A stretch of 43,155 nucleotides of DNA from Planctomycetota bacterium (GCA_045863855.1 BTVV01000046.1:1-43155), one strand, 5' to 3'. Positions 17,329-33,981 are shown, counted from the stretch's first letter. The notes: a model not told the origin generated them from the sequence alone. Numbers and translations: made by a program.

Positions 17329-17405
17329 TGGCGTCCCCAGGAGGACTCGAACCTCCAACCTGCGGATTAGAAATCCGCTGCTCTGTCCGGTTGAGCTATG
17401 GGGAC
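17329..17405 (-). tRNA. tRNA-Arg(TCT), CCA encoded
   Basis: GTCCCCA-TA-GCTCAACCGGACAGAGC-A-GCGGA[TTTCTAA]TCCGC-AGGTT-GGAGG[TTCGAGT]CCTCC-TGGGGAC-GCCA. Confidence 0.97.
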
Positions 17406-17406
17406 G
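17364..17406. repeat. att direct repeat, left copy (43 bp)
   Basis: Identical to 33939-33981. Confidence 0.95.
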
Positions 17407-17503
17407 TTACTTAAAGCCTTTATTATCAAACACTTTGCTTGTTGACTCGCTCCCGATACTATGATACAACACCGGTACAACGATACTACGGGAGACAACA
17501 CCC

Positions 17504-19087
17504 ATGCAGATCACGCCGAAGCCGAATCCAGGGCGCCCGGGCTGGCGGGTTACGTTCCGGCATCCGGTCACGAAGCGCATCGTCACGGGCGGCCTTTCCA
17601 CAAGGGACGAGTCGGCGGCAGTCACGGTCTGCCGGCACCTCTCCAGCCTATCCGATCGGCCGGAACTCTGGCAAGAACCCGAGAACCCCGTTCTCCTGGG
17701 CTTCGCCTTGCGGGCGGTGGAATTGTGGTTCGGTTCGGACTCCGCACACGCGGCTTTCGTGCGCAAGAACACCGACCCCAACCGGCCGCTGGTCAAGCCT
17801 GACGAGGCGGCGGCGCTGCGCTCTGTCGAGGACAACCGGAAGCTGCTGGCGGAAGTCGCCGCGGCGACGGGCGCGACGGTGAACGCGCCAAGCCTTGACG
17901 ACGTGTTGCAGCGCATCCCGTCCACGTTCTTTGCCGAGTATGTGGCGCTGCAAAACCGCTGCCGGGAGCAGGCGGCGCGGCTGGCCGATATTGAGCCTGA
18001 GCTTGAATCGTACCGAGTGGAGCTTGACCGCATCCGGCGCAAGGCGAACGAGCACGTCAAGGTGAGCATGGGCGCGGCGTGGGACGCCTTTACCCAAGAC
18101 GACGATTACAAAGCGCTGCACCCCAAGACGCAAGCGGACCTAGACCGCGTGGCGGCGTCTTTCATTGGATCCCTTCGCGGCGGGCGGCACTTCCGGCTTG
18201 CTGAGGTTCGGGCGGCGCATGTGGGGACGTGGCTTTCCGCGCTGCGTAGCGCCAAGCGGACCAAGGACGGGAAGGCGACCGGGGCCGCGCTGTCGGCAGT
18301 CACGAAGGCGAAACAAAAGCGGTATCTGTCCGTGTGGATGACCTTCGCGTTTAAGAAATTCGACCTGAGCGAAAACCCGATGGACAAGACGGGCAAGGTA
18401 AAGGGCGCGGCCGTGGGGCGTGAGGACATCGCGGCCTTCCGGGTGGCTGACCTCCGCGCGTTCCGCGAGATGCTCGATACGCTCGCAACTCAAGACCACT
18501 ACTGGCACGCGCTGGTTGCCACGGCGACGCTTGCCGGGCCGCGCTACTCTGAACTTGCTTGGATGAAGATTGAGCACGTGAACTTGCAGGCGAACGAGAT
18601 TGTCATAGCCACGCGGCGCGACGGGGAGACGGTGACAGGGACCAAGACGGGCCGGGAGCGGCGCTTGCCTATCGAGTCCACCGTTCTACGCGCGGCGCTG
18701 GAGGCGCATATCAAGCGGCGGCTGGCCGAACAAAAGCGCAAGGGCGCGACGGCTGCCGAGCGCTCCCCTTTCCTGTTTCCGTCCACCGTGGGCGACCATC
18801 CGGGCAAGCCGCGCACCCTGACGCCGGCGGGCATCTGGTGCGAGTCGAGTACGTTCCTGCGCGCATGGCGCGGCGTGGCGGCGCGGTGCGAGGAAGTCAC
18901 CGGCGCGCGCGACTACTGGCGCTTTGGGCCTCGTGAGTGGCGGCACTGTGCCGGTACGGCCATGGGGTATTCGGGGAACGATTCGCTCCGCATCTCCGCA
19001 TGGCTGGGCAACTCTGAGGACGTTTGCCGAAAGCACTACATCAGGACTTCGGAGAAGGGCGAGCGGTGGCCGTTTGAGTGGCGCTAA
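17504..19087 (+). CDS. int: Tyrosine recombinase / integrase
   Basis: GPRYSEL (Arg), TKTG (Lys), PREWRH, WLGNS, KHY (Tyr); adjacent to att. Confidence 0.92.
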   Translation: MQITPKPNPGRPGWRVTFRHPVTKRIVTGGLSTRDESAAVTVCRHLSSLSDRPELWQEPENPVLLGFALRAVELWFGSDSAHAAFVRKNTDPNRPLVKPDEAAALRSVEDNRKLLAEVAAATGATVNAPSLDDVLQRIPSTFFAEYVALQNRCREQAARLADIEPELESYRVELDRIRRKANEHVKVSMGAAWDAFTQDDDYKALHPKTQADLDRVAASFIGSLRGGRHFRLAEVRAAHVGTWLSALRSAKRTKDGKATGAALSAVTKAKQKRYLSVWMTFAFKKFDLSENPMDKTGKVKGAAVGREDIAAFRVADLRAFREMLDTLATQDHYWHALVATATLAGPRYSELAWMKIEHVNLQANEIVIATRRDGETVTGTKTGRERRLPIESTVLRAALEAHIKRRLAEQKRKGATAAERSPFLFPSTVGDHPGKPRTLTPAGIWCESSTFLRAWRGVAARCEEVTGARDYWRFGPREWRHCAGTAMGYSGNDSLRISAWLGNSEDVCRKHYIRTSEKGERWPFEWR

Positions 19088-19440
19088 CCCGTTGCGGAAA
19101 AATGGGTTAGGCAAGGCTGAAACAAACCGGGCGGAAAGTTCTATTTTTCGCGCGGGACGGTGGTAAAAGGTGGCTGGCTTCGTGGCTGTGAACCGCGCGA
19201 GCCGATGGAACCGAACAAGACAACCGAATATCGCCCCGAGGGATGCGTAAGCCGAAAGGCTCGCGGCCTTCACCGCCAGGTGAACGCTTCACAATCCCGA
19301 CCGGGGCGGTTGTTGTCCAAGGAAGGGGTGCGGCGGGACGGCGCTTGAGACTCTCTATCCATGGCAAGGCACGGCTTGGCAAGGGGTGGTGTCGTACTTC
19401 GTGAAGTAGAAAACCAAACCCTTGAATTAGGAGAAAAGTC

Positions 19441-19641
19441 ATGGTTACAGAGACGCGCGTTGGACCGAAGCGGTGCAATAAGGCATCGTTGGCTAAGGTT
19501 GGCGTGACGTTTGGAGAGGGCTATCCCTATCGCCTCTCGTTTCTTTGTGATGAATGCGGGAACGAGTGGTGGCCCAATCTGAAGTCTGGCGGGAAGCTGC
19601 CGCGCGGATATTGGAAGTGCCCGCGTGGTTGTAACCACTAA
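19441..19641 (+). CDS. Small Zn-ribbon protein
   Basis: CDECG...WKCPRGC; AGGAG RBS. Confidence 0.65.
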   Translation: MVTETRVGPKRCNKASLAKVGVTFGEGYPYRLSFLCDECGNEWWPNLKSGGKLPRGYWKCPRGCNH

Positions 19642-19686
19642 GTTTTAGCGTCACCCGCCGCACCTAGACTTGGAAAAGGAAGGTAC

Positions 19687-19893
19687 ATGGGAAAGCGTAA
19701 GAAGAAGTCGGAACGGCTTTTGAAAGTGCAGGAGTATTCCGCACCCCAAAAGCCGCAACTCGTGAAGGTACAGATTGAGGAAGTACCACAAAAGCCGCAA
19801 CTCGTGAGAGTACAGATTACGGAAGCACCCCAAAAGCCGCGACTTTTGAGGGTGAAAGTGCGCGCTGCGAAAGGAGGCTCTATCGGTGATTGA
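19687..19893 (+). CDS. Small basic protein with three 14-aa repeats
   Basis: (A/V)PQKP(Q/R)L x3 encoded by 42-bp tandem repeats at 19741-19866; AAGGAAGG RBS. Confidence 0.55.
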   Translation: MGKRKKKSERLLKVQEYSAPQKPQLVKVQIEEVPQKPQLVRVQITEAPQKPRLLRVKVRAAKGGSIGD

Positions 19894-20030
19894 GCAGTAA
19901 AGAAGCGGGGCCGGCCAGTGTTGGAATCACCGACCGACCCCTAACCGTTCCACGTGAAATAGGCACGCGGCCCGGCTGCCGATTGTATCGGCAGATTCGG
20001 CGCTGCCCTACACTTTGAGAGGGGCAGACC

Positions 20031-20297
20031 ATGCAGCAACCAACACCGGATGTAATCTTAGAGTCCTTGCGCCCGCTCGCGGCGCTGATTTTGGAATCGG
20101 AAACGGCGCGTGACTGGTTCGCGGGCCACCTCGCGGAAGTCGCGGGCACTTTCACCTACACCCTGCAAATGCAGGAAGTCTACCTCGATACCTTCGAGCG
20201 CTTCGCCACGGCGACCGGTCAACCTGATTTGATACAGGAGGCGGCGGATTATCGGCGCGACCACAATGAGCACCACGGGAAGGCGGTGAGCGCATGA
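20031..20297 (+). CDS. Hypothetical protein
   Basis: ORF; ATGA overlap with the next gene. Confidence 0.65.
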   Translation: MQQPTPDVILESLRPLAALILESETARDWFAGHLAEVAGTFTYTLQMQEVYLDTFERFATATGQPDLIQEAADYRRDHNEHHGKAVSA

Positions 20298-20914
20298 AGC
20301 GCCAAACGATTCCGAGTGAGCTTGAACCGCTGGCGGCGTATTTCAAGGACGACCCGGAAGGGCTGGCTTGGGGGCTGCTGCGGGCGGTGGCTGACGACAT
20401 GAACCTCGACGAAGAATGGACCGGGCATTACGTCGAGACGGCGGCGCGGATCGCGGAAGGGCTTGCGCCCGACTGCGATTCGCGCGTGTTCGCGTGGGCG
20501 CTGGAATGGGGCGGGCGGTTCGGCGACCGGACGCGGCGAAAGGAAAGGACGCTCCGCGCGGTGAAGTACATGAAGGAAAACGCGGCGCTGGACGGGTGCG
20601 CGACTTGGGGCACGGCGGCGTTGTTCGGCGCTGAAACGATGTGTGAGTTAGGCGACGGCGCGGCGGCGCTGTCCTTGTTGGGCGAGTATATCAGTTGGTG
20701 TGCAGGGAAAACCGTACCGACTTGGGAATATGGAATCACCGAAGAAAGCAGCGACACCGTGGCGCGCATCCATGCGGCGGTGAAGGCGGGCGCATCCGCG
20801 CACGACGCGGGCTTGATGTTAGAGCGCGTGACGTGCGAGCTAGAACCGGCGCTGAAGGCGGCGGAGAAGCTGAGAGATGAGGCGAACGGCCGCCGAGAGG
20901 CGGTGAGCGTATGA
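20294..20914 (+). CDS. Hypothetical protein
   Basis: ORF; ATGA overlaps on both sides. Confidence 0.7.
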   Translation: MKRQTIPSELEPLAAYFKDDPEGLAWGLLRAVADDMNLDEEWTGHYVETAARIAEGLAPDCDSRVFAWALEWGGRFGDRTRRKERTLRAVKYMKENAALDGCATWGTAALFGAETMCELGDGAAALSLLGEYISWCAGKTVPTWEYGITEESSDTVARIHAAVKAGASAHDAGLMLERVTCELEPALKAAEKLRDEANGRREAVSV

Positions 20915-21495
20915 GCACCGAGGTTGAAGAACATCGGCGCGAACAGGAACGCGCGGCGGCGCATATTGCCCGCGAGGCGCGGAAGCGCGCGAAGGCTCGC
21001 GAGGCGTTGAAGGCAGAGCGGGACGCGCTGCGGGCGGAACTGGACGCGCTGCGTGAGACGTTTCGATTGAAGCCGAAAGAGGAATTGCTTTCGGAGTTGA
21101 ACGGCAAGACGTTCGCATGGGGCGGCATCTTCGTTTCAGGTGGGCGCGAAGAACGTATCGACTTCCAGCTAAATGCGGGGCTTATCGGCTCTGAAATGGT
21201 TGCAACGATTATGGAAAAGGGTTTCGAGCATCGCGGTTTAGCGCTCTGGAACTGCGAGGGCTTTCACGAAGGCAACCGGCTTGAGCAGTTGCGGGGCTGG
21301 GCGCAGACGGCGCGCGTTGGGTTCGCGCTGTCGGAACTGCGGGCGCGCTGTTCGTTGTGCACGGCGGTTGCGCTGACGAATGCGCAGTCGGGCTATTACG
21401 CGCGGCGCGGGCCGGACATGTGTTCCGACGCGCTGAAAACCGCCTTCGCGAAGGAGTACAAGCAGCGCATGGGATGGGCAAAGGACGCCGAGTAA
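20911..21495 (+). CDS. Hypothetical protein with coiled-coil N-terminus
   Basis: ORF; ATGA overlap. Confidence 0.7.
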   Translation: MSTEVEEHRREQERAAAHIAREARKRAKAREALKAERDALRAELDALRETFRLKPKEELLSELNGKTFAWGGIFVSGGREERIDFQLNAGLIGSEMVATIMEKGFEHRGLALWNCEGFHEGNRLEQLRGWAQTARVGFALSELRARCSLCTAVALTNAQSGYYARRGPDMCSDALKTAFAKEYKQRMGWAKDAE

Positions 21496-21579
21496 TTCTC
21501 GCGCGAAAATGCGGGGAATTGGTAGGCTTGGAGCATGGGCTAGGGTAGCTCCCGAAAAGCGGCCTCCGACCGCCTGCCC

Positions 21580-22398
21580 ATGGATTCATCTTCGGAACTG
21601 CACGCGCAACGGAGGCGCGACTACATGGCGATTCAACCGGCATCTGGCAAGTGTAAGCTCTGTGGTGAGGCAACATCGCTTCTTGTTCGCCAAGTAGAAA
21701 ACGAGCCTGCCGAGTTTTACTGCGCGAAGCACAACCCGATTCCGGTTGAGGCTGCGCACGCGGTATTTAAGCAGTGGGCTGGCTTGGTGAACCGCAAGCA
21801 TGGTCAACTTGTCCGGGGTGAATTGAACGAGCTTAAGCGCCTCGCGGCTTTGCGGTGGGGTTCCTGGGAAGCGGCGCAAAGTAGGCTAATGCTGTTCGTT
21901 TGTAAGCATCACGGCTTCACGGCCGAGCAAGCGGAGCGGCTGAACGAAGCGGAACGCATCGCGGCGGCGCTCGATGCCTTGCAAGCGGGCGGTGAGGAAA
22001 AGGAAGCGCCAGCGACCGTGGAGGCGTTGAAGGCGAAGACCGCGAAAACGCCGGGGGCGAAAGCAGAAGCCGTAGAACCACCTGAGCCGCTTTTGACCGG
22101 ATACCGGGCTATATTTGCAGCGCTTGGGCGTAGTTATTCTAACGAAGCTGTTCGGCAGTTTAAGGGCGCGTGCAAGTCTGACTCCCGCTGTCCGATCGTG
22201 TTCCATCGCAACGGCGGGCCGCCCAAGGTAAAGAAGTCGGAATTGCTGGCCTGGGCAAATCAGGTGGACGCCGATTACGAAGCCATGAAGGCCAAGCAGG
22301 GCGACGCCAGCGCCACCACCGGCAGCACCTACAAGCAAGGCCGGAAGGGTGTTGCGGTCGTGAAGGACATTAGCGGAACCGTAAGGCGGAAAATCTGA
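21580..22398 (+). CDS. Hypothetical protein, possible regulator upstream of xis
   Basis: ORF with CKLC...YCAKH; position immediately before the Xis-like gene. Confidence 0.6.
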   Translation: MDSSSELHAQRRRDYMAIQPASGKCKLCGEATSLLVRQVENEPAEFYCAKHNPIPVEAAHAVFKQWAGLVNRKHGQLVRGELNELKRLAALRWGSWEAAQSRLMLFVCKHHGFTAEQAERLNEAERIAAALDALQAGGEEKEAPATVEALKAKTAKTPGAKAEAVEPPEPLLTGYRAIFAALGRSYSNEAVRQFKGACKSDSRCPIVFHRNGGPPKVKKSELLAWANQVDADYEAMKAKQGDASATTGSTYKQGRKGVAVVKDISGTVRRKI

Positions 22399-22477: not shown

Positions 22478-22669
22478 ATGGGCGAAAGCATTTTACTCCC
22501 TGACGAAGTTGACGCGTTGTGTAGGTGGACGCCCGGCAGGGCGGAGAAGTTGGCGCGGCGCGGTAAGATTCCGCACTTCGTACTGCCCGACGGCTCGATC
22601 CGGTTTGATCGTGCGGACGTTGCGGCTTTCATCCGGCGCGTGGACCCCGAGCAAGGGGACCGCGCGTGA
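22478..22669 (+). CDS. Excisionase/AlpA-like HTH protein
   Basis: LLPDEVDAL...LARRGKIPHFVLPDGSIRFDRADV; AGGAGG RBS; CTGAC repeats upstream (22395-22433). Confidence 0.8.
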   Translation: MGESILLPDEVDALCRWTPGRAEKLARRGKIPHFVLPDGSIRFDRADVAAFIRRVDPEQGDRA

Positions 22670-22905
22670 TTCTGAAATACACCCTCACCGCCGGCGAGAC
22701 CGTCGAGCACCTCGACGCCGACCCCTCCAACCCTACCGACCGGGCGCGCGTGCTGGCGGCGTGGCGTCGGCTGGCTGACCTGCACCCGCGCGAGCGCGTG
22801 GAGCTGATCGGGCGCCTACCGTCCGATGCGCCCAAGCACATCGCCGACGTGCTCAACCCGATCTTGGCTGAGATGAGCGCGCGGCGGGAAGGCGGTGCGG
22901 CATGA
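22666..22905 (+). CDS. Hypothetical protein
   Basis: Overlapping start and stop with neighbours. Confidence 0.6.
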   Translation: MILKYTLTAGETVEHLDADPSNPTDRARVLAAWRRLADLHPRERVELIGRLPSDAPKHIADVLNPILAEMSARREGGAA

Positions 22906-23687
22906 GCCTTTGGATTGAGTCGCACGTCACCCTTGGGCGGCACCCGAAGTTGATCAGGCTGGCGGAAGCGCTGGGCGTTTCGCGGGCCGCGGCCATGGGG
23001 CACCTGCATTACCTCTGGCACTGGTCGCTGGTCTACACCGAAGGCGGTGATTTGTCCCCGTTCCGTCACAAAGATGTGTCACACGCTGCGGAATGGGACG
23101 GTGATCCCGACGTCTTCGTAAATGCTCTCAAAGAGTCTGGTTTCATGGACTCGGACGGCAACCTGCATGACTGGAAGGACTACGCGGGCCGCATACTGGA
23201 AAGACGTGCTGCTGCAAGGGATAGGAAGCGTAGGTGGCGGGAGAAAAGCGAGCGGAACGGGGACAGAACGAGGACAGGAACGGTGACGGAACGCGCTACC
23301 TTACCTGACCTTACCTTACCAACTACAACACCACGCGCGAAAACGCGCGGACGCTCGAAAGCCAAGAACTGCACTACTGCGAAGATTCAGATACCCGAAA
23401 GCCTGAACACCGAAGCCTTCAAAGCGGCTTGGTCTGAGTGGCAACAGCACCGGCGGGAAGCGCGTAAACCGCTGACGCCTACGGCGGAGCGGCAGCAGCT
23501 TGGGAAGCTGGAAGCCTGGGGTGCTGATCGCGCGGTGGCGGCGATTCGGCAAAGCCTCGCGAACGGCTGGCAAGGGCTCTTTGAGCCTCGTTGCGAAGCC
23601 GGCGGGCAGGAACTCACCTTCGCCGAATCCGAAGCGGAAGCCGAGCGGCGAATTTCCGCGAATCTGCAAGCCAAATCGGGAGCTTGA
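22902..23687 (+). CDS. Phage-type replication initiator protein
   Basis: N-term WIESHVTLGRHPKLIRLA...GHLHYLW...HDW; C-term AWSEWQQHRREARKPLT...SLANGWQGLF; directly upstream of the helicase. Confidence 0.75.
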   Translation: MSLWIESHVTLGRHPKLIRLAEALGVSRAAAMGHLHYLWHWSLVYTEGGDLSPFRHKDVSHAAEWDGDPDVFVNALKESGFMDSDGNLHDWKDYAGRILERRAAARDRKRRWREKSERNGDRTRTGTVTERATLPDLTLPTTTPRAKTRGRSKAKNCTTAKIQIPESLNTEAFKAAWSEWQQHRREARKPLTPTAERQQLGKLEAWGADRAVAAIRQSLANGWQGLFEPRCEAGGQELTFAESEAEAERRISANLQAKSGA

Positions 23688-23689
23688 AA

Positions 23690-25012
23690 ATGCACGACAA
23701 GATACCGGCGCACGACGCGGAAGCGGAGCTTGGCCTACTGGCCGGGATGCTGGCGGCACCGGAAGCGGCGCGCGGCGCGGTCTCCAGCCTGACGCCCGAT
23801 TGCTTCTACGTGCCGGCCTACGCGAAAGCCTTTCGGCTGTTCGCCGAAATCTGGCGCGCAACCGGGACGCTCGACGGCCACCAAGTCGTGAGCGAAGCGA
23901 CTAAGCGCGGGCTCGATGTGGGGCAACTGATCGAGGCTGCGGCGCGCGGCGCGCACGCTCCGGCATTCGAGCGGCATATCCGCGTGATTCTGGAGCACGA
24001 CCGGTCGCGGCGCCTTCAAGCCGCGCTGAGTGAAGCCGAACGGGCGGCTGCGGCTGGGATCCCTGCGGCTGAAGTCGAAACAAGCCTACGCGCCAAGCTG
24101 GGGGCGATTGCGCAACCCGAAGGCTCTGACGCGCTGGCCGAATTGCACGACGATCTACAGGCGGCCGTGAACGGTGAGCGCTTCGCGGTTCCCCTGCCCT
24201 GGCCGATGCTTTCGCGCGCAACGCGGGCGCTACAACCCGGCACGGTAACGGACCTGTGCGGTTCTCCGGGCTCGACCAAGAGCTTCGCGGGAACGCAAGC
24301 CATGGCCGCGTTGCAATTGGGCGGGTATCGAACAGCCGTTTTAGAGCTTGAGGACGGGCGCGCGTACCACTTGCGCCGCGTCTTAGCTCAAGTCTCCGGT
24401 TGTTCGCGGTTGACCGATGACGACTGGTGCCGAGCGAATCCGGGCTCTGTCGCTGAAGCCATGGCGGCGCACCGTGACACCATGCAGAAACTGGAATCTT
24501 GCATAGACGTTCTTCCGGACGGCGTGAGCCCAACGCCTGACTCGCTGCTTGCGTGGGTGCAGCGCAAAGCAGACGCGGGCTTCCGCGTGCTGGTTGTCGA
24601 TCCGATCACGCTGATGATTCGAGGGCGGGCAAGCTGGGAAGCGGACGAAAAGTTTCTGTTCGGAGCGAAGCGCATTGTCGAGAAGGCGGGCGCCTCGCTG
24701 GTCCTGGTGACGCATCCGCGGCGGCTCCCGCATGGCGCGAAGAATGCGCAACTCACCATGGACGACTTGGCCGGCGGCGCGGCCTATGCCAGATTCTCGC
24801 AAACGATTCTTTACCTTCGCGCGCATGACCCACAAAGCGGGGAAGTGAAAACAGCGCTTGGGACAAGCCGCGAGACTTGGAATCGAACCTTCACGATCTT
24901 CAAGGCGCGTAATGGGCCTTTCGGTCCAGGCGGGCGCTATGCCTGCCAGTTCGATCCTGAAAGCCTGACCCTGCGTGAGCTTGGGCGCATCGTGAGCGAG
25001 GACAAGCGGTAA
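23690..25012 (+). CDS. DnaB-like replicative helicase
   Basis: DnaB N-term PAHDAEAELGLLAGML; Walker A GSPGSTKS; Walker B VLVVD; KARNGP. Confidence 0.85.
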   Translation: MHDKIPAHDAEAELGLLAGMLAAPEAARGAVSSLTPDCFYVPAYAKAFRLFAEIWRATGTLDGHQVVSEATKRGLDVGQLIEAAARGAHAPAFERHIRVILEHDRSRRLQAALSEAERAAAAGIPAAEVETSLRAKLGAIAQPEGSDALAELHDDLQAAVNGERFAVPLPWPMLSRATRALQPGTVTDLCGSPGSTKSFAGTQAMAALQLGGYRTAVLELEDGRAYHLRRVLAQVSGCSRLTDDDWCRANPGSVAEAMAAHRDTMQKLESCIDVLPDGVSPTPDSLLAWVQRKADAGFRVLVVDPITLMIRGRASWEADEKFLFGAKRIVEKAGASLVLVTHPRRLPHGAKNAQLTMDDLAGGAAYARFSQTILYLRAHDPQSGEVKTALGTSRETWNRTFTIFKARNGPFGPGGRYACQFDPESLTLRELGRIVSEDKR

Positions 25013-25072: not shown

Positions 25073-25297
25073 ATGTTGATTTTCGACGGATTTAAGACGT
25101 CGGCTGGGGCCGATGCGTTCGCGCGGGCGGTTGGCGGAACGGTGTACCAGAGCCAAGACGAGTCCGACCAAGTGGACCCAATCCCCTGCGACCTGATCCC
25201 GCCGATTGTCCTTGTTGCTCGCGCTGATTCCGATGTGGCAGAGCAACGCTTAGCAAGGCGCGTCAAGCGCTACGGCGGCGAGTTTGCGGGAACCTAA
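25073..25297 (+). CDS. Hypothetical protein
   Basis: AGGAG RBS, ATG 25073. Confidence 0.6.
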   Translation: MLIFDGFKTSAGADAFARAVGGTVYQSQDESDQVDPIPCDLIPPIVLVARADSDVAEQRLARRVKRYGGEFAGT

Positions 25298-25301
25298 AGA
25301 C

Positions 25302-25505: not shown

Positions 25506-25570
25506 TGCGCGAATTTGTGTGGAAAATGGTACGTGATAAGTGTGCAGGTTCGGACCGGGAGGAAGAACCA

Positions 25571-26306: not shown

Positions 26307-26689
26307 TGCCACGTGTTCGACGGCGCGAACTGACGGCGCGGCGCGGCTGGACAGACGCCCACTTGATGCACGCGGTATGGGGCCACGACTTCTTTGGCGA
26401 CGGCTTCGGCAAGGGCGACGCGGGCCGCGAGGCGCTGCGCGAAGCGTGGGCAGACGAAGATTTCCGCACGCGTGTTTACGAGCGGCTGCGCGAACGGTTC
26501 GAGATGGAACGTTGCAGCGAGGTTATGCCCGCTGCGAACGCGATACGCGAAGCCTATCCGGTTCCTCGGGAGCACGCGGAATGGTTGCGCTGGGCGGTTC
26601 CTGAACGCAAGCGACGCGAAGGCGAACGCGCCGGGGCGCGGGCTGTGCTTGCTGGCGCTGCGAATGACGAGGTGGACCCGGATGATTGA
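26306..26689 (+). CDS. Hypothetical protein
   Basis: TGATG overlap with terS. Confidence 0.65.
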   Translation: MPRVRRRELTARRGWTDAHLMHAVWGHDFFGDGFGKGDAGREALREAWADEDFRTRVYERLRERFEMERCSEVMPAANAIREAYPVPREHAEWLRWAVPERKRREGERAGARAVLAGAANDEVDPDD

Positions 26690-26945
26690 GTTCTTCAACG
26701 CGGTACTGGCAGCGCTGTTGCCTTCGCCTGCGAAGCCGAAAGCCGACGCGCCGGAGCTTTTCACGCTGACCGGTACAGAAAAGGCGGCGCGGCTCCCGTT
26801 CGCCTCGAAGCCTGACGCCGAATCGAACCTTCGTGGGCCTGCGGGCGCCTGCGCCTACCACGTGGGCCAGCGTGAACAGAGCATGCCTGCGGCGCCCGCG
26901 GCTGACTCGATTCCGGTGTTTGGTCCGTCCGATTGGAGTAACTAA
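26682..26945 (+). CDS. Hypothetical protein
   Basis: MIEFFNAVLA...; GAGG RBS; fills the gap. Confidence 0.5.
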   Translation: MIEFFNAVLAALLPSPAKPKADAPELFTLTGTEKAARLPFASKPDAESNLRGPAGACAYHVGQREQSMPAAPAADSIPVFGPSDWSN

Positions 26946-26947: not shown

Positions 26948-27745
26948 ATGGCTGCTCCCTTCCCGACCTGCGTACACGAAGCCGGTCACCTCGTCGCCTG
27001 CGTTGCGCTGGGCGGCTTCGTTGACTCGGCCACGGTGGGCGCGGAAGGCGGGCGCGTGACCTCCCAAGGTCTGACGTCCTGGCGCGATGTGGTGGCTTTC
27101 GCCATGGCCGGCGAGGTGGCGCAAGCGAAGCTCCAGACTCGGGCGCTCGATTGGGCCAGTGCCGCCACCAAGGGCGACCGCGCCTTGATCGGCGAAGCCT
27201 TCGCCGCGGGCCTGGGGTTCACTCCGGATTACTTGGCAACGCATCCGGCATTTCTTCGTGAGCTTCAGCGCGCGCGGCTGCTCATCGTCGAGCGCTGGGC
27301 GGAAGTGCTTCAACTCGCCCATAGACTCCAGGTCTGCGGCTCCGTCTCGGACTCGGAAGCGCGGCGCGTGGTGAAGCTGGCGGCCGATGTAATCGAGCCC
27401 CCGCTTCCACATAGCGCCTTGTGCGATTCTGTATCGGACCTGGAAGTGGCGGCGGTGATGGTTCAGGACTGGCGGCGCTGGGCGACGGCGAGGCATGGAT
27501 ACAACCGCGAAAACTGGTTGCGGGCGACGGCAATTCTCGAAGCCCTCGAAGCGCGGCGGGAAGAGCTGGTTTATGCGGCTGATGCGCCCGCGAGAATGGA
27601 ACGCGCGCGGCGGCGGAAAGAGGCTGGCTTGCCTGTCGCTGGTGACGTTGGCGTGGTTCAACTGGCCGACCGTGACCGGCTCGGCGCAATCAAAGCATAC
27701 TGTGATTCATTCGGAATCACTGGCGAGCAAGGGAGAGAGGAATAA
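26948..27745 (+). CDS. HExxH metallopeptidase-like protein (M41/M50-like fold)
   Basis: HEAGHLVA...AMAGEVAQ...GD pattern of FtsH-type protease domains. Confidence 0.7.
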   Translation: MAAPFPTCVHEAGHLVACVALGGFVDSATVGAEGGRVTSQGLTSWRDVVAFAMAGEVAQAKLQTRALDWASAATKGDRALIGEAFAAGLGFTPDYLATHPAFLRELQRARLLIVERWAEVLQLAHRLQVCGSVSDSEARRVVKLAADVIEPPLPHSALCDSVSDLEVAAVMVQDWRRWATARHGYNRENWLRATAILEALEARREELVYAADAPARMERARRRKEAGLPVAGDVGVVQLADRDRLGAIKAYCDSFGITGEQGREE

Positions 27746-28542
27746 TGTTCAGCGCATTCGTTGAAAAAATCTTGGGTCGGCGCAACGCCGATGACGTGGC
27801 CGCGCGCGCGGCGGTAGCGGAATTGGCGGCGGCGGAAGCTGCCGGCAACGCGGATTCCGGCACGCTGGCAAATCTCGAAAAGCGCCTCGCGGGCCTGCAA
27901 ATCAGTCGCGACGAGTTCCGCGAGCAAGTCGAGCTGCACCGGAAGCGGGCACGGCTGAAGGCTTCGGCTGCCACGGCTCCAGCGCTCGCGAAGAAAGCGG
28001 ACGAAGCGGCCTTCAATGCCGATGCAACGGTCTGGAAGGAACGCGAGACGACGCACCGGTTGCGCGCTGAGGTTCAGGCTGCGGAACTGGCAGCGCAGAA
28101 CGCGCGGAGTCTGGCGAACGCGGCGGAACGTGACGCGCGCGAACTGGCGGCGCTCGAATATCAGAACGCGGAAGCATTCGGCCTGCCGCGGCGTGACTTG
28201 GATTCCTGCTCCCTACGCCATGGCGAGAACTATCTCGCGCATGGGGACGATGACGCGCCGGTGCAGGACGTTCCGGCCGACGTGTTCCATCGTGAGTTGC
28301 TGCGCCGGCGGGATCTTCTGGACGCTGCCCAAAAGGAAGCCTATGTAGCGCATCAGCGCGCATGGGAAATCTACGCGGCGGCGATTACCCGGCCGGGCGA
28401 TCCGTCCATGCTCGAAAGCGACGCGCACGAAGCCGAGTGGAAGGCCGCCGTTGCCAGGCGCGCGAAAGCTGCCGGCGTGGTCCGGCCGCCGATGCAGGCG
28501 CCGCGGCTGACCTGGGCCGATGTGGTGAAGGCTTCCAAGTGA
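27745..28542 (+). CDS. Ala-rich coiled-coil protein
   Basis: TAATG overlap; GAGG RBS; helical composition. Confidence 0.7.
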   Translation: MFSAFVEKILGRRNADDVAARAAVAELAAAEAAGNADSGTLANLEKRLAGLQISRDEFREQVELHRKRARLKASAATAPALAKKADEAAFNADATVWKERETTHRLRAEVQAAELAAQNARSLANAAERDARELAALEYQNAEAFGLPRRDLDSCSLRHGENYLAHGDDDAPVQDVPADVFHRELLRRRDLLDAAQKEAYVAHQRAWEIYAAAITRPGDPSMLESDAHEAEWKAAVARRAKAAGVVRPPMQAPRLTWADVVKASK

Positions 28543-28814
28543 TGAACGCGAGCGCGATTCATGCAGGAATCGAGGCGGAAATTCAACTCCACGAAGCTCG
28601 CGGGACCAAGGCGCGGCTGGCGTGTGAAAGCATCTTAGAGGCGGCGCTGGGCGTGGGCCGCGAAAAACTGAGCGCCGAAGAACAGCGGGAATATGACCTC
28701 TACTCCCGTGAACTGGAAAGCGCCCAAGCGGCCATTGACGCGCTGGCGGATCGTCTCGAAGCGCTGAACGCGGCCGGTTCGGCGTTCATCCGGGCTTGTG
28801 AGGTGCGGGCTTAA
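28542..28814 (+). CDS. Small coiled-coil protein resembling an HK97 capsid delta/scaffold segment
   Basis: REKLSAEEQREYDLYSRELESAQAAIDAL; TGATG overlap. Confidence 0.55.
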   Translation: MNASAIHAGIEAEIQLHEARGTKARLACESILEAALGVGREKLSAEEQREYDLYSRELESAQAAIDALADRLEALNAAGSAFIRACEVRA

Positions 28815-28816: not shown

Positions 28817-30496
28817 ATGGCAAACGTTCGAACACTCTCTGTATCAATCGTTGCTCGAACCGCGGGCTTCGCGAAGGGCATCAAGCAAGCAATCGGGCTG
28901 AACAAAAGTTTTTCGGCGTCCGTGAAAAACGCAAGCGTGGGCCTGGCGAAAATGTCGGCGGGCTTCGCCGTGGCTGCGGGCGCGGGCCTCGCTGCGCTCA
29001 CCAAGTCGTCAATGGAAAGCATTGACACGGCTGCGAAGCTGTCTGACAAGCTGGGCCTCTCCATTGACAGCCTACGCGGCCTTCAGTACGCGGCGGGGCT
29101 CGCGGGTTCATCGTCCGAAACGATGAACAAATCGCTGGAAAAGATGAGTCAGAATCTCGGCAACGCGCTGGGCGGCTCCGGTGAAGTAGCTGAGCAACTT
29201 AAAGGCATGGGCCTGAGCGCGGCGGCGTTGGTTCAAATGGACGCCGGGGAAGCGTTCGGGAAGATCGCCGATGGTATCCGGGCGCTGCCTACGCCTGCCC
29301 AACAAAGCGCCGCCGCCATGTCCATATTCGGGCGCGCGGGTACGGAGTTGCTGCCTACGATTCTACAGGGTAGCGCGGCGCTGAGGGACCAGACCAAGGA
29401 GTTCATCGGGCTGCGCGGCGCTATGTCGCGGGTGGATGCGTCGTTTGTGGAGCACGCGAACGATGCGCTTACACGCGCGGGTGAGGCTGTCAAGGGCCTT
29501 GGTGACCGGCTCGCCGTCGTGCTCGCTCCTGCTGTTTCGGCGGTGGCCGAGTCCTTTACGAGTTGGATTGTAGGCGCGATTCCGAACACAAACACGCTCA
29601 ATGCAAGCGTGGAGCGCCTGGCGCAACTCACGGGCTTTGCTGCCGATGCTGCGGTGGGCCTCGCGGCAATCTGGAACGATATTCGATATTCAGCCGATAA
29701 GGCGAGCGCCGCGGCGCTGCGCATGACCGGCGACCTTAGCTTGCTCGGTACGGGCAACCTTGGCGATTCGTACACGGGCCAGGAAGCGATACGCAAACAA
29801 ATGAAGGCGCTTGAAGCGAAGGGGCTTCAGGGCGGCTCGGTCTACAAGAATTTACAGAATCGCCTGCGCGCGAAGTCTCAATTCGAGCGCATGGCCGACC
29901 TTGCAGATGCGCAAGCGGGCGACCGCTTCAGCGCGGGCACGGGCTACCGAAACCAGTTCAAAACGGGCGCCGGGAGTGCGGCCGTCAACGAAGCACTGGC
30001 CGGCGTGCGAGCGCGGCAGGCGGAAGCGGCGGCGGCGCTGGCGACGATGAAGAAAAGTATCGGCGGCGGTGCGTCTCCGGGCGTGCTCCTGGGTAAGAGC
30101 ATCGGCGACGGGATCGCGCAAGGTATCAAGATGGCGCGGGACCATCTCGAAGAAATGAAGGGCTTCGCCGATGGCCTGCTTGAAAGCATCGCCAGCCCGG
30201 AAGCCAAGTTGCAGGACTTCATTACGAAAGTAGGCGCGGCCATGCGCGCGGGGCTGCTCGACGCAACGCAAGGGGCGGCGGGCATCAAAGCCGAGATGGA
30301 CAGGCTATTTCCGGGTGGCGAAACAGGCGGGCGGTTCGGCGCGTTCCAGCAGATTGATTTAAGCCGCGTGAGCGTCGGGGCGATTGCTTCGAACAAGCCG
30401 CAGAAGGTGGAAGGCACGATGGACAAGCCGATGTTGAACGCGCTGAAGAAGATTGAAGCGAACACGAAGCGGCCGCCCGTGGCGGTGTTTGGATAA
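28817..30496 (+). CDS. Phage tail tape-measure-like protein
   Basis: N-term MANVRTLSVSIVARTAGFAKG; IDTAAKLSDKLG..LRGLQYAA..AG and AAAMSIFGRAGTELLP motifs; Ala/Gly-rich helical. Confidence 0.85.
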   Translation: MANVRTLSVSIVARTAGFAKGIKQAIGLNKSFSASVKNASVGLAKMSAGFAVAAGAGLAALTKSSMESIDTAAKLSDKLGLSIDSLRGLQYAAGLAGSSSETMNKSLEKMSQNLGNALGGSGEVAEQLKGMGLSAAALVQMDAGEAFGKIADGIRALPTPAQQSAAAMSIFGRAGTELLPTILQGSAALRDQTKEFIGLRGAMSRVDASFVEHANDALTRAGEAVKGLGDRLAVVLAPAVSAVAESFTSWIVGAIPNTNTLNASVERLAQLTGFAADAAVGLAAIWNDIRYSADKASAAALRMTGDLSLLGTGNLGDSYTGQEAIRKQMKALEAKGLQGGSVYKNLQNRLRAKSQFERMADLADAQAGDRFSAGTGYRNQFKTGAGSAAVNEALAGVRARQAEAAAALATMKKSIGGGASPGVLLGKSIGDGIAQGIKMARDHLEEMKGFADGLLESIASPEAKLQDFITKVGAAMRAGLLDATQGAAGIKAEMDRLFPGGETGGRFGAFQQIDLSRVSVGAIASNKPQKVEGTMDKPMLNALKKIEANTKRPPVAVFG

Positions 30497-30499: not shown

Positions 30500-31297
30500 A
30501 TGCCGACCGTTAAAGACCTCGTAGAAGAAAGCAGCCTCGAAGAAGGCTCCGAAGGCTACACCTGCACGCGCGCCTTCATGGTGTCCGGGTTGACGGGTGA
30601 CGCCGACCGCAAGCTGTTTTCGGCGCTCGAAGCAGACGGCATTCCTCGTCGTGGTGACTTCCATCCTTCGATTCCAAACCTCGTCGCGGTTGGGCGCTCC
30701 ACCGATGCTATCGACGTTGGCACCATCAAGGTACGGGTGACGTACAAGCCGTACAACGCTTCGACGGTGATTAACGAAGTGGCTCCGCCGAAGGTGAGCA
30801 TGGGCGCGACGGTGCAGGACTTGGAAACTTACAAGGACCACACCGGCGCGACTATGTACGTGTACTACACCTCCACCCCTGTCAACGGGGCGAGCGTGTA
30901 CGACAAAACGAAGGACAGCGGGAAGGCTACGGGCAAAGTAAACCGCTCGTATCCAATGCCCGTCGCGCGGCTGACCCGGCGCGAACGCAAGAACCCGCTG
31001 GACCTCGCGTTGCAATACGTCGGCCGCGTCAACCTGCTTGCCTTCCGTGGCGGGGCGGCGCGCACGTGGCTTATCACTCGCATCGAAGGTGACAGCGAGG
31101 ACGGCGGCGAGAGCTTCACGAATACGTATGAACTCGCCTACAACCCGTCCACGTGGGATGCAACGGTTATCTTTGCCGACAAGGAAACCGGCGAGATTCC
31201 GAACGCGCCTGAACCGAGCGAAGGCAACGGCATCGCCACGTTCCAAATCTATCCTGCCGTGGACTTTGACCCGCTGAACCTGGGGGCGCTGTCGTGA
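30500..31297 (+). CDS. Putative tail (distal/tip-associated) protein
   Basis: Follows the TMP; beta-rich, GIPRRGDFHP...VRVTY. Confidence 0.55.
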   Translation: MPTVKDLVEESSLEEGSEGYTCTRAFMVSGLTGDADRKLFSALEADGIPRRGDFHPSIPNLVAVGRSTDAIDVGTIKVRVTYKPYNASTVINEVAPPKVSMGATVQDLETYKDHTGATMYVYYTSTPVNGASVYDKTKDSGKATGKVNRSYPMPVARLTRRERKNPLDLALQYVGRVNLLAFRGGAARTWLITRIEGDSEDGGESFTNTYELAYNPSTWDATVIFADKETGEIPNAPEPSEGNGIATFQIYPAVDFDPLNLGALS

Positions 31298-31833
31298 GCG
31301 ATTCCCCTTCGATGCCGCTTCCGAAAGTGGTCACGGGCCAAGCCGTCACTGCGGGCAAGTGGAATGACCACGTTTCCGCAATCAACACGCTGCGGAAGGG
31401 CGTGCATCCGCCGGAACAAATCTTCCCCGAGCGGCAGGCGCGGGCGGCGACGATTGCGCTATTCCAGGTCGTGAGCGTGAGCACCGATTACCTCGTTTGC
31501 AATCCCTTCGACGGCGCAAGCGGCGAAGCGGGTACGGATGTGGTCAACGTGGCGCTGCCGTACCTGCTCCGGCGTACTCCGTTCCATGGATCTACGCGCG
31601 AGGGTATCGCGTACTCCTACACTTCGGCGACGGCGCGCACGGCAACGCTTGGAAGCGATACAGAGTCGCAAGTGATTGTGCCGAGCTACGCGGCGGGGGA
31701 TTTAATCTTCGCGGTTCGCGGCGTGCTGCGGGGCACCGGCGCGGTGCTGACGGACGGGAACAACATCACAACGGCGCTCGAATGGATTGATATGAACTTC
31801 GACGGCCGCGCCTGGGCGAAGGACGACGCATGA
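31294..31833 (+). CDS. Putative tail-tip/structural protein
   Basis: VVTGQAVTAGKWN N-terminus typical of tail-associated proteins; position in the module. Confidence 0.5.
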   Translation: MSDSPSMPLPKVVTGQAVTAGKWNDHVSAINTLRKGVHPPEQIFPERQARAATIALFQVVSVSTDYLVCNPFDGASGEAGTDVVNVALPYLLRRTPFHGSTREGIAYSYTSATARTATLGSDTESQVIVPSYAAGDLIFAVRGVLRGTGAVLTDGNNITTALEWIDMNFDGRAWAKDDA

Positions 31834-32012
31834 CGAGCGCGAAGATTCAAACCGGGAGCGTAGCGCGGTTTCGCGACCTCCCGCGGGCGAAGCACCACAA
31901 GGGCCAAGTGTGGCGCGTGCTCAAAGATGATGGGTGGTCGCTGCTGCGCGTGGGCAAGCAACCGGGCTTGTATCGCAGTGACGGCTTGGTCTGGGAACGA
32001 ATCGAGGGTTAA
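31830..32012 (+). CDS. Hypothetical protein
   Basis: ATGA overlap. Confidence 0.5.
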   Translation: MTSAKIQTGSVARFRDLPRAKHHKGQVWRVLKDDGWSLLRVGKQPGLYRSDGLVWERIEG

Positions 32013-32015
32013 ATC

Positions 32016-32453
32016 GTGTCTTACAACGCAACTCTGCTCGAAGACGTGGAAACGCTGGTTGCTGGCACCAAGTGCGACAAGAAAATCGAAGTCGCGTACA
32101 CAAGCGGCGGCGCGGAGCGGCTGCTGTACTGGACGCCAGGCGTCACGAATCGGGCGCGGGGCATCTGGTCGGTGAACAAAGCCACGGGCACGCCGACCGC
32201 GATTGCGAGCCTGACGGGCGCCGAACGCTTCGATGCGACCTGGGCCGCGTATCCACTAATGCAGGAAATGCGCGCGCACGTGAGGACGCTTTTCAACGGG
32301 AGCATAGCGGCGGCTGAAGTATCCGCCTTCGATGATGCTTTCGCGGCGCTGTGGGAGATGCGGCTGTACTGGAAGGAGTACCGAAAGACGCTGGGCGGCG
32401 GCGATCCGAAAAGCTGGTTCCAGTATACCCCTTCGCCGACGCATTACGTTTGA
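32016..32453 (+). CDS. Hypothetical protein
   Basis: GTG start after GAGG. Confidence 0.6.
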   Translation: MSYNATLLEDVETLVAGTKCDKKIEVAYTSGGAERLLYWTPGVTNRARGIWSVNKATGTPTAIASLTGAERFDATWAAYPLMQEMRAHVRTLFNGSIAAAEVSAFDDAFAALWEMRLYWKEYRKTLGGGDPKSWFQYTPSPTHYV

Positions 32454-32641
32454 GGCGCAAAAATCGCGCCGTCCTTGACCGCGTGGTCAAGGCTGAGGGC
32501 TCTACCGTCCCCTTCCGGTATCCCTCGTAACTTTCTTTTTTTCGCTGAACCGCGCTCGCTCTCCCGACGCGGTACGGCGTAGGTTCAGGTAAGGAGTGTC
32601 GGGAGCGCTCCAAGCCTGAACCCACAAGGGAGAATAATTCC

Positions 32642-33370
32642 ATGAGCGTTTACAAAAGAAACTCGCGCGCTGCTGGTCGTGAGATTCGGCGTGCGCTCTC
32701 GGCTCGCAACGCGGCGGAAGCGCTGGGCGAGATTACGCGCGGCTGCGAGATATACGGGCTGAGCAAGGGACAGTTCTCCCTCGTCGATATCATCGAACAC
32801 TGCTTGAAGGCCACGGGGCCGGCTGATGTGGTCTTGAGCACGTGGACCGCGGCCGGCGCGGATATTGACTTTGCCTTGGCGCTGCTGCGGAATGGCTCTA
32901 TCCGCTCGATGCGTTTCATTGTGGATTTCTCTTTTCCGACGCGGCAACCGGCTTACTGTGCGGCGCTGCGCGAGCGGTTCGGCGACGACGCAATCCGGCT
33001 GACCAAGACACACGCGAAATTCGTAACGATTACTAATACCGATTGGAACCTCGTGATTCGTTCGTCAATGAACCTGAACGAAAACCGGCGCTTGGAATCG
33101 TTCGAGATTTCGGACGATGCGGGCATGGCTGCGTACCTGCGCGAAGTCTGCCAGGAGCTATTCGACGGGCACGCGGCCGGGAAGCAATTCGCCCAGCGGC
33201 CGTTCGACGTGTGCAAGGACTTTGAATCCTTCGGCGAGTCTGAACCCGTGGCCGATGCGGAGCGGAAGGCGCTGGCCGGGGACGGCGGGAAGTATTTCAA
33301 CGATGGACCGACCGGCACGGATTTACGGCGCGCGGGCTGGACCACGGCGAAGGGGAAGGGCTTGGAATGA
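32642..33370 (+). CDS. Phospholipase D-fold (HKD-like) protein, possible nuclease
   Basis: THAKFVTI...IRSSMNLNEN..E motif. Confidence 0.7.
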   Translation: MSVYKRNSRAAGREIRRALSARNAAEALGEITRGCEIYGLSKGQFSLVDIIEHCLKATGPADVVLSTWTAAGADIDFALALLRNGSIRSMRFIVDFSFPTRQPAYCAALRERFGDDAIRLTKTHAKFVTITNTDWNLVIRSSMNLNENRRLESFEISDDAGMAAYLREVCQELFDGHAAGKQFAQRPFDVCKDFESFGESEPVADAERKALAGDGGKYFNDGPTGTDLRRAGWTTAKGKGLE

Positions 33371-33672
33371 GCGCACCGGAACATCTGAGCGACGCGCAAC
33401 GCGCGGTATGGGATGAGGTTGAAGCGGTGGCCGGTCCTTGCGTCTCCGAGTCGGCGGCGCAACTCCGTGAGGCGTACTGTATCGAGCGGGCAAGGTGGCT
33501 CGAAGCTGAGGCTTACCTTCGCGAGAATGGCGACGTGCTGACGCTGCGGAACGACAAGGGCCAAGTGCTTAAGGTGCTCGAAGCGCCGCAACTCAAGATC
33601 GCCCAACGGTCCCGAGACGCGGCCTTGCGCCTGGCTGGCCGGATCGGGTTAAGCGCGCGGCGGAAGGCCTGA
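33367..33672 (+). CDS. Second P27-like terminase small subunit
   Basis: APEHLSDAQRAVW...YC...LRENG...PQLKI...LAGRIGLSARR. Confidence 0.7.
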   Translation: MSAPEHLSDAQRAVWDEVEAVAGPCVSESAAQLREAYCIERARWLEAEAYLRENGDVLTLRNDKGQVLKVLEAPQLKIAQRSRDAALRLAGRIGLSARRKA

Positions 33673-33938
33673 GCCACCCGCCCGGGTATTTCATCTCTGG
33701 CATGGATTCCCTGAGACCCTAGTTGCAGGCACACGTATTACCCGGACAGTTTTGGGGGTGGGGGGTGCTCGACGCGGGAAGGGCTCGCGACTGCGCACCG
33801 TTGGCGCTGGTGAGGCGTTCGCGGCCGCGGCTCGATGAAGTGACGGGCGCCGGAAAGAACGGGCCAGGATGCACGGGAACGCAAGCTAGACCGATACAAC
33901 AAAGAGACAACGCGCTAAAATCTCTATAGATAAATCAG

Positions 33939-33981
33939 GGATTAGAAATCCGCTGCTCTGTCCGGTTGAGCTATGGGGACG
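33939..33981 (-). repeat. att direct repeat, right copy = isolated 5' half of tRNA-Arg(TCT)
   Basis: Identical to 17364-17406; covers the acceptor 5' strand through the anticodon loop only. Confidence 0.95.

Follow-up and report, generated by a model that had tools for sequence, protein, structure and literature searches.

The window, by which we mean the whole 43,155-nucleotide stretch of Planctomycetota DNA that was analysed, carries an integrated island delimited by two 43-nt att repeats that are 100% identical and lie 16,575 bp apart, at 17364-17406 (left core) and 33939-33981 (right core). No third copy was found elsewhere in the assembly. Each repeat corresponds to the 5′ part of a tRNA-Arg(TCT) gene (17329..17405, minus strand), ending at the anticodon loop; the 5′ half of this gene is the left att copy, while the right core is the chromosome's own tRNA-Arg 5′ half. 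The integration site is unoccupied in a congener (G002) and likewise in contigs from two other studies. Coding sequence makes up about 91% of the island, and all recognised genes are on the plus strand; its late genes overlap or are separated by 2-3 nt, with no scars. An intact element of about 16.6 kb with perfect att repeats and coupled genes on one strand, as read initially from sequence alone, is thus borne out. In run X1, read depth over the island contigs (9-12.6x) was not raised relative to the flanks (7.5x and 10.5x). No circle junction is listed in four contig runs, data of a kind that cannot show its absence.

The leftmost gene of the island (17504..19087) encodes a tyrosine integrase of 527 aa (PF00589; PHROG1, 3e-22). 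It is followed by accessory ORFs (19441..22398) to which profile searches assigned no function and one of which contains three 42-nt repeats (19743-19868). None of 15 ORFs, five of the accessory ORFs among them, matched a PADLOC defence gene. Further downstream are an excisionase-like HTH gene, xis (22478..22669; HTH_17, 2e-5; 53% identity to a gene of a related island, G003), a replication initiator gene, rep (22902..23687; PHROG9474, 4e-36), and a DnaB-like helicase gene (23690..25012; PHROG19, 8e-25). The next product (25284..25505), a possible late regulator, had been called Ogr-like, which the searches do not support: it is a zinc-ribbon protein whose best match is NrdR-N (2.5e-8), with Ogr/Delta unmatched. 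An HTH_17 protein identified by Pfam (25502..25807) completes this part of the island, and the HTH_17 genes could be AlpA-like. No minus-strand ORF had a PHROG match, and a divergent regulator pair was not found. The likely start codons of the helicase, terS1 and cc2 genes, corrected from those given earlier, are at 23690, 25950 and 28542, respectively.

The late region begins with a candidate cos/packaging site (25873..25930), recognised by comparison with the G003 island: 40 of its 58 nucleotides are identical to the gap between HNH and terS in G003, and none of 300 shuffles aligned as well. The match exceeded chance at this one of seven loci, the remaining six giving no significant match, and the site after terS2 reached a z of 2.4 at best. 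A cos motif common to all islands was therefore rejected, as only the window-G003 pair beat the shuffles. Directly downstream lies the gene for TerS1, a P27-like small terminase (25950..26306; 46% identity to TerS of the G005 island), and a second small terminase, TerS2, is encoded at the far end of the late region (33367..33672); both proteins pass the Terminase_4 cut-off (9e-6 and 3e-6). TerS2 is under purifying selection (dN/dS of 0.14 against close relatives). It is preceded by a PLD-like endonuclease gene (32642..33370; PHROG16945, 6e-50), whose product is 65% identical to that of a packaging-region gene of a complete HK97-type phage. In that phage, as well as in islands G001 and G002, a TerS2 homologue follows the PLD gene.

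Between terS1 and the tail genes are two small ORFs with no assigned function (26306..26945) and a block of three genes. The product of the first (26948..27745, M50B/M41-like) had been described as a peptidase; the HEXXH motif is indeed present, but the M50B match of the window protein is below the cut-off (0.0015), the G005 homologue being the one that passes (5.6e-6). The second gene, cc1 (27745..28542), encodes a helical coiled-coil protein. A search of 401 genomes with the cc1 profile gave four strong matches, every one in the islands described here, and the single match in viral contigs was the G003 island itself. Neither the HEXXH gene nor cc1 was found in C67, a complete prophage of the same genome, or elsewhere in that genome. 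The third gene, cc2 (28542..28814), codes for a 90-aa coiled coil of unassigned function that occupies the position of a tail chaperone and has no profile match. The idea that the small coiled coils mimic the delta scaffold domain of HK97 was dropped, the best capsid N-terminus ranking 160th (E of 63). A relation of cc1 to Sid or Psu found no support, with profile match probabilities of 0.2% and 0.1%. An Atlas lead for cc1 (PF07455 cluster, 0.76) found no confirmation in hhalign comparisons with individual P4 sequences or in a PDB sequence search.

A tape measure protein (TMP) of 559 aa is encoded at 28817..30496 (PHROG9483, 5e-45), followed by t1 (30500..31297), t2 (31294..31833) and two ORFs of 60 and 145 aa with no assigned function (31830..32453). 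The TMP aligns over its full length with that of the G002 island (37% identity). Two unrelated TMP types occur among the islands, with lengths of 423-585 aa compared to 404-798 aa in phages. The tail-like character of the two genes after the TMP was upheld, since homologues of t1 and t2 follow the TMP, in this order, in several viral contigs, complete siphophages included. The island's host genome itself contains a TMP-t1 tail: the gene order of C67 is TerL, portal, protease, capsid, connector, gp10, terminator, tube, chaperone, TMP and a t1 homologue, as called by Pfam, except for the chaperone and TMP, which were identified by inspection and BLAST. Scans of viral contigs with the single t1 and TMP proteins produced no matches, and a metagenome scan returned 17 loci, mostly too short for classing. 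A tail chaperone was not detected in the window island by Pfam or PHROG; the G003 island encodes one (PHROG344, 1.5e-20).

From gene order in siphophages and a structure model, t1 is predicted to be a tail-tip ring protein, either distal tail or hub-like. The model (pLDDT of 84) has two beta domains and gave 20 matches in BFVD at E ≤ 0.001, with every named one being a Caudovirales protein. Tail tube, terminator, hub and Dit folds make up most of its top PDB matches, which are weak (best Foldseek E of 0.02; best Z of 5.8, over residues 1-85 only), and PDB sequences yielded no match below an E of 0.95. The model thus predicts a tube/hub-like beta protein and does not fold as a capsid. A dN/dS of 0.16 against close relatives points to purifying selection on t1, its comparison partner (L049) possibly being a phage. 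The t2 model is poor (pLDDT of 55), with weak matches to OB folds.

The absence of TerL, portal, major capsid, tail tube and lysis genes, claimed at the outset, was confirmed by profile searches. None of 30 plus-strand ORFs matched these families in Pfam or PHROG, nor did 21 further ORFs of the window (19 on the minus and two on the plus strand) in PHROG or any of 12 late ORFs in NCBIfam. The matches of the genome to PF05065 and PF04860 are confined to C67.

Islands of the same type were then looked for elsewhere; four more were found, and none of them is a full prophage. The five att-bounded islands (13,843-16,575 bp; 13.8-16.2 kb for the four relatives) belong to one Planctomycetota family and represent three genera and three integrase lineages, the window integrase having no BLAST match to the other four. 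Their target tRNAs are all different (Arg, Leu, Gln, Pro and Ala). Scanning of 17, 21, 22 and 18 ORFs in the four relatives revealed no match to TerL, portal, capsid or tube. TerS and the HEXXH protein are common to all five, cc1 (by profile) and the TMP are found in four, t1 and HNH in three, t2 and HK97-gp10 in two, and the tail chaperone in one. The tail genes thus form graded subsets: none in G001, the TMP alone in G002, TMP and t1 in G005, and chaperone, gp10, TMP, t1 and t2 in G003. Since G001 has no TMP, and G002 has a TMP with neither t1 nor t2, membership of the family does not depend on the tail module. G002 has a shortened PLD gene, and that of G001 looks frameshifted. General traits of satellites are seen here: a discrete integrative element with att and integrase, an incomplete virion gene set in which the TerL, portal, capsid, tube and lysis families are all unmatched, and an architecture conserved in five islands across diverged hosts, as opposed to random decay.

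The neighbouring element had been suggested as a helper. Positions 1-17328 of the window belong to another element inserted in the island's tRNA gene, with its other att at G000:C8:2572 and an integrase-like ORF at C8:1272-2435. We find no support for this role, since the element is integrated separately and none of its 34 ORFs scanned matched a structural gene; its middle could be linked neither by end overlap nor by 4-mer profile, and it may still be a phage. Matches to PF03354 TerL were found neither in the island's own genome nor in any of 17 family genomes, so that no resident helper matching a P27-type TerS was found, and PF05876 and PF04466 also gave no matches in the search for a resident cos-type helper. 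Two PF03237 TerLs (in C67 and C1) were rejected as a helper source, the TerS proteins of their elements being unlike those of the island. Phages of the required type do exist. G440 has a PF03354 TerL as well as a TMP-t1 tail, and G443, which provides the best match for PLD-TerS2 and has no t1 homologue, shows the order HNH-PLD-TerS-TerS-TerL-portal-capsid.

The presence of TerS, TMP and tail-tip genes with no head, TerL or tube gene detected indicates a likely phage parasite with tails that are partly its own and partly borrowed. We consider it probable that the island exploits an HK97-like cos siphophage as a satellite and places its own TMP and tail-tip core in a borrowed tail. This reading starts from features observed directly (boundaries, gene content, empty site, recurrence, the place of t1 and t2 in phage tails, and purifying selection on t1 and TerS2); every step that uses a helper, incorporation into particles included, is one that we infer. 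An HK97-like cos-type siphophage, on infecting the cell or being induced, would trigger excision by Int and Xis at the 43-nt att, and the island would be replicated by Rep and DnaB. Island TerS would steer the helper large terminase to the conserved site before terS1, and island DNA would be packed into heads made by the helper; the HEXXH and coiled-coil proteins, which are specific to the family, are candidate modifiers of these heads. TMP, t1 and t2 would act as a tail initiator on which helper chaperones and tube protein would polymerise. The resulting particles would combine a tube and fibres from the helper with the island's own TMP and tip core, and lysis would also be provided by the helper. 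A satellite bringing its own tape measure and tail tip and borrowing the rest had been proposed in the sequence-only reading; the tail-tip genes agree with this part, which neither of the two checks made on it (capsid folds, relatives that are full prophages) refuted, but the strategy itself is not new (see below). The accompanying idea of host-range redirection is unsupported, as no fibre could be recognised in the window island.

Other explanations account for parts of the same data. The tail genes could mainly interfere, with TMP, t1 or t2 poisoning helper tail assembly instead of being built into island particles. PICI-borne genes reportedly interfere with tail assembly (PMC11364771), and the tail-gene subset differs from island to island. 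However, the genes are full length, stand in the order seen in phages and are still translationally coupled, which is what a role in assembly would predict. The Rta protein of PLE11 does target the helper TMP (PMC12987554), but it is a separate 80-aa protein and not a structural copy. We therefore regard interference as unlikely. That the island is PICI-like, relying on TerS redirection only with phage tail genes as neutral cargo, appears very unlikely. Tail genes are missing from one of the five islands, and not one of 200 bootstrap trees united the three island t1 proteins, which, together with the two unrelated TMP types, fits repeated capture; a single t1 origin is nevertheless not rejected (AU p of 0.07). 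Cargo would not be expected to leave an intact TMP in four of five islands at the same position after the HEXXH/coiled-coil block, the full-length window-G002 TMP alignment or purifying selection on t1, with the reservation on L049 given above.

Siphophage prophages that lost their head and tube blocks by deletion would explain the phage-like order of int, rep, terS and tail genes. Complete prophages with TMP-t1 tails are present in the same and related genomes, and decay is visible in some relatives. Yet each island would need two separate clean deletions (TerL to capsid, and tube), and five islands in five tRNAs, with three integrase lineages, would all have converged on 14-17 kb. The coupled late genes of the window island show no scars, and the HEXXH and cc1 genes, with strong cc1 matches limited to islands, were not found in C67 or elsewhere in the genome. 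As the five islands share TerS and HEXXH with no head gene detected, a deletion remnant is disfavoured, and we hold it to be scarcely probable.

Among known satellites, PICIs and cos-type SaPIs integrate at tRNA or att sites, have an int-xis-rep/helicase-terS layout and are about a third of the helper genome in size; classical PICIs are not known to have a TMP or tail-tip gene and carry a divergent regulator pair (stl/str) or alpA. The island resembles them in int, xis, the replication module and terS, and differs in carrying TMP, t1 and t2 and in having all recognised genes on one strand. Capsid-forming cf-PICIs (bioRxiv 2022.09.08.507074 and 2025.02.11.637232), which have HK97-type packaging genes, make their own heads and TerL and require helper tails; their own capsid, portal, protease and TerL are missing from the island. 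P4 is likewise a small integrated satellite, with a late-region zinc-binding protein and a coiled coil of about 250 aa, but its annotated genes include neither TerS nor TMP, unlike those of the island, and cc1 lacks a profile match to its Sid and Psu, as described above. Some cf-PICIs encode putative TMPs (PMC12987554). The EPIPs of Mycolicibacterium aichiense, ~11-kb satellites, share integrase, TerS and TMP with the island and form tails longer than the helper's (PMC12822802), an own-TMP strategy being only suggested for them. They are said to have no tail protein besides the TMP, and statements on a capsid gene disagree within the paper (PMC12822802). EPIPs possess a serine integrase and a head-tail adaptor/stopper, whereas the island has a tyrosine integrase, no connector match, replication genes of its own and two likely tail-tip genes.

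The closest parallel is provided by PLEs, the ICP1 satellites of Vibrio cholerae (PMC12987554). Like the island, they are integrated, have no capsid of their own and encode a TMP, and their TMPs fall into two divergent types, as do those of the islands. PLE tails are chimeric, with TMP, chaperone and hub supplied by the satellite: PLE11 virions contain the PLE TMP and hub along with a capsid and most tail parts from ICP1. Vibrio PLEs are so far the only satellites for which chimeric tails were shown experimentally, and these tails are contractile. The island tail genes instead match non-contractile HK97-like siphophages, with P27-type TerS/HNH packaging, and the host is a planctomycete and not Vibrio. 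PLEs have a hub of their own, whereas the counterpart t1 matches tube, hub and Dit folds only weakly; they carry a chaperone, while none was detected in the window island, which has t2. No PHROG or Pfam match links the island to PLEs.

A broader proposal is that these are tail-initiator satellites, the mirror of cf-PICIs, whose whole siphophage tip-and-ruler unit (TMP, hub-like t1 and OB-fold t2) nucleates the tubes of several unrelated helpers, the two TerS proteins serving two packaging systems; irrespective of the phage that provides the head, the islands would then have their own ejection machinery and some their own receptor binding, for which a repeat protein of the G005 island could be responsible. 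We put this forward tentatively, as a possible but doubtful extension.

No planctomycete satellite with a TMP was found in the literature searched, where supplements of the PLE and EPIP papers may list more TMP-bearing satellites, and neither the island family nor the siphophage tip module seems to have been described so far. Such islands can pass for decayed prophages, and t1/t2 represent a widespread family of likely tail-tip proteins that has so far had no annotation. The gradient from no tail gene through TMP, TMP-t1 and TMP-t1-t2 to the set with chaperone and gp10 offers a comparison for which parts tail takeover requires. If the preferred reading of a satellite with its own TMP and tail-tip core is true, then the chimeric-tail strategy would have arisen again, in a Planctomycetota family that looks unrelated in sequence and with non-contractile tail genes.

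The island is bounded by two identical 43-nt repeats (17364-17406 and 33939-33981) that enclose 16,575 bp; no third copy was found elsewhere in the assembly. The repeat corresponds to the 5′ portion of a tRNA-Arg(TCT) gene (17329-17405, minus strand). Coding sequence makes up about 91% of the island, and its late genes are coupled. Profile scans of its 30 plus-strand ORFs matched an integrase, an excisionase-like HTH, a replication initiator, a DnaB-like helicase, two P27-like small terminases (TerS1, 25950-26306; TerS2, 33367-33672), a tape measure protein (TMP) and a PLD-like endonuclease (32642-33370). The island proposed by the sequence-only reading is real. That reading also saw no large terminase (TerL), portal, capsid, tube or lysis gene in it; indeed, none of these families was matched by the 30 ORFs or by 21 further window ORFs. 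The sole PF05065 capsid and PF04860 portal matches of the genome lie outside the window, on contig C67. The gene labelled "Ogr-like" codes for a zinc ribbon, and its Ogr identity was not borne out. In the accessory region, a 68-aa ORF contains three 42-nt tandem repeats (19743-19868).

In the congener G002, the tRNA-Arg gene is intact, the flanks of the site are 91-94% identical to those of the island, and the window's right flank directly meets DNA matching contig C8 of the window's assembly from position 2572 on. G002 lacks both the island and its left neighbour. Since the right flank is joined there straight to C8 DNA, the left neighbour is a separate second element in the same tRNA-Arg gene; it has its own integrase-like gene (C8:1272-2435), and the suggestion that the large element next door is a candidate helper is not supported. 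This second element (window 1-17328 plus C8:1-2617) contains many small minus-strand ORFs of unassigned function, and a tRNA-Asp gene (9733-9820). Its sequence is AT-rich at 15-16 kb, and a degenerate att-like 20-mer lies at 17205-17224. One tRNA-Arg gene hosts two elements, each replacing one half. The island replaces the 5′ half; its four relatives, described below, duplicate 3′ ends. Contigs of two other studies also span the empty site, with a short side of only 35 letters. In the likely source run, the depth of the island equals that of its flanks; no circle junction is listed in contig runs, which cannot show absence.

The two genes directly downstream of the TMP gene were named t1 (30500-31297) and t2 (31294-31833). 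Homologues of t1 were found in 2 other genomes among 151, and the TerS family in 7 of 62 genomes of the class. By following these matches, four related att-bounded islands were located, in tRNA-Leu (G005:C30, 15,639 bp), tRNA-Gln (G003:C5, 16,182 bp), tRNA-Pro (G002:C1, 15,120 bp) and tRNA-Ala (G001:C3, 13,843 bp) genes. A genome-collection scan returned two loci, both titled Planctomycetota, and no islands beyond the five. The integrases belong to three lineages and the replication genes are mosaic; the common part is the late block, with TerS and an HEXXH protein (26948-27745) in all five islands. The coiled-coil gene cc1 (27745-28542) was detected by profile in four, G005 having a shorter helical ORF at the same place; among 401 phylum genomes, cc1 gave four strong matches, all islands, and two marginal ones. 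HNH is present in 3/5 islands, TMP in 4/5, t1 in 3/5, t2 and HK97-gp10 in 2/5 each and a tail chaperone in 1/5. The TMPs of the window island and of G002 align over their full length with 37% identity. Those of G003 and G005 are a second type, which matched no TMP profile and was named from length, position and 25% mutual identity; the G003 TMP lies after the chaperone and gp10 genes.

The TMP-less G001 island has umuDC-like genes in place of tail genes (L147:12009-13698). In the G003 island, a 170-aa ORF before HNH (L009:8753-9265) is head-decoration-like by inspection, with no PHROG, Pfam or NCBIfam match. Two loci are kin of another make: G036:C55, with HNH and TerS only, and G005:C35, with HNH, TerS, S49 protease and capsid and no TMP. 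The latter (L015:5215-9158) is island-like, with an HK97 capsid and no TerL or portal seen, and has TerS and small ORFs in common with the G005:C30 island.

Alignment of t1 led to 11 viral loci. Six of them contain head or tube genes, assigned by BLAST against reference genes or by inspection; four could not be classed, being too short or unclear, and the eleventh is the G003 island itself. At those six loci, as in the complete, Pfam-typed prophage that the genome itself carries on C67, t1 follows TMP; a t2 homologue (36-41% identical) follows t1 in L020, L021, L022 and L026. The predicted t1 fold (pLDDT 84) has two beta domains. Twenty BFVD proteins matched it at E<=0.001, the named ones being uncharacterised Caudovirales proteins, and weak but consistent PDB matches (best E 0.02; best Z 5.8, over residues 1-85) were to T5-family tail tip, baseplate, Dit, terminator and VgrG/gp27 hub proteins. 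We therefore conclude that t1 is likely a distal-tail or hub ring and not the capsid whose discovery would have spoken against the sequence-only reading. For t2, the predicted structure is of low quality (pLDDT 55); its weak matches, mostly to OB-fold proteins, would suit a spike or adaptor. Complete phages have genes of 400-800 aa after t2; the window island lacks them, and its fibres would therefore come from a helper. At the corresponding place, after its tail genes, the G005 island encodes a 317-aa repeat protein. The three island t1 proteins were grouped in 0 of 200 bootstrap trees; a single origin was not rejected (AU p 0.07).

P27-like TerS proteins partner HNH and a PF03354 TerL in HK97-type phages, acting at a cos site. 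The 58 nt before terS1 are identical at 40 positions to the gap between HNH and terS in the G003 island, a value reached by 0/300 shuffles; they matched none of six other loci compared. PLD and TerS2 are matched as a pair (65% and 42%, respectively) in the complete 41-kb HK97-type phage G443 (gene order HNH, PLD, TerS, TerS, TerL, portal, protease, capsid), which contains no t1 homologue. Phage record G440 joins a PF03354 TerL with a TMP-t1 tail, and thus the needed helper type exists. PF03354 was found in 0 of 17 family genomes; prophage C67 has a t1 homologue, but its TerL is PF03237.

That prophage (L038, L039) has a transposase-like gene at one of its ends and codes for a Terminase_6 TerL, an HK97 capsid, a tube, a TMP and the t1 homologue. 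Tail blocks related to its own are found in many genomes of the class, G002 having two. The genome of the window contains a second, 17.3-kb att-bounded island at tRNA-Tyr (C44:1271-18618, L040), whose integrase is 34-38% identical to those of the G003 and G005 islands and whose 426-aa possible capsid and 448-aa TMP-like ORF had no Pfam match. Contig C1 of that genome carries a small phage-like cluster (45500-62000; L080, L081) in which a Terminase_6 gene is accompanied by ORFs labelled, by inspection, as portal-, scaffold- and capsid-like; the contig also has an array of 26 tRNA genes (23667-28178).

Taken together, the island is probably a satellite whose TerS would redirect the terminase of a cos-type siphophage and whose TMP-t1-t2 unit would start tails, the helper lending heads, TerL, chaperone, tube, fibres and lysis. 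Counted against this are the G001 relative without tail genes, the PLD gene decaying in two relatives, and the fact that neither particle nor circle was seen. The tail genes might instead act as interference, which we consider unlikely.

It is less likely again that they are neutral cargo. For t1, dN/dS is 0.16 over 230 codons compared with a metagenome fragment that is 94% identical to it and may come from a phage; for TerS2 compared with G002 it is 0.14. Least probable, by a little, is that the islands are prophage remnants. The sequence-only reading had pointed to full prophages with a head module among close relatives as the sign of this; TerL, portal, capsid and tube gave no PHROG match among the 17, 21, 22 and 18 ORFs of the four relative islands.

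A satellite building tails on its own TMP has a precedent. According to PMC12987554, PLE11 virions take TMP and hub from the PLE and capsid and most tail parts from ICP1, deletion of the PLE tmp lowers transfer by ~99.9%, and putative tmp genes are pointed out in other satellites, cf-PICIs included. EPIPs encode TerS and TMP (PMC12822802), and PMC13230959 deals with satellites that lack tail genes. By the proposed strategy, the window island would work like a PLE, yet it is not one; nor does it belong to the cf-PICIs or EPIPs by their membership tests. No planctomycete example of such a satellite was found in the literature searched. The strategy is thus already known from PLEs, and the planctomycete island family is a variant on it; beyond a single TMP island, it offers five members whose tail genes form a graded set, together with two conserved tip genes that were traced to the tails of real siphophages.
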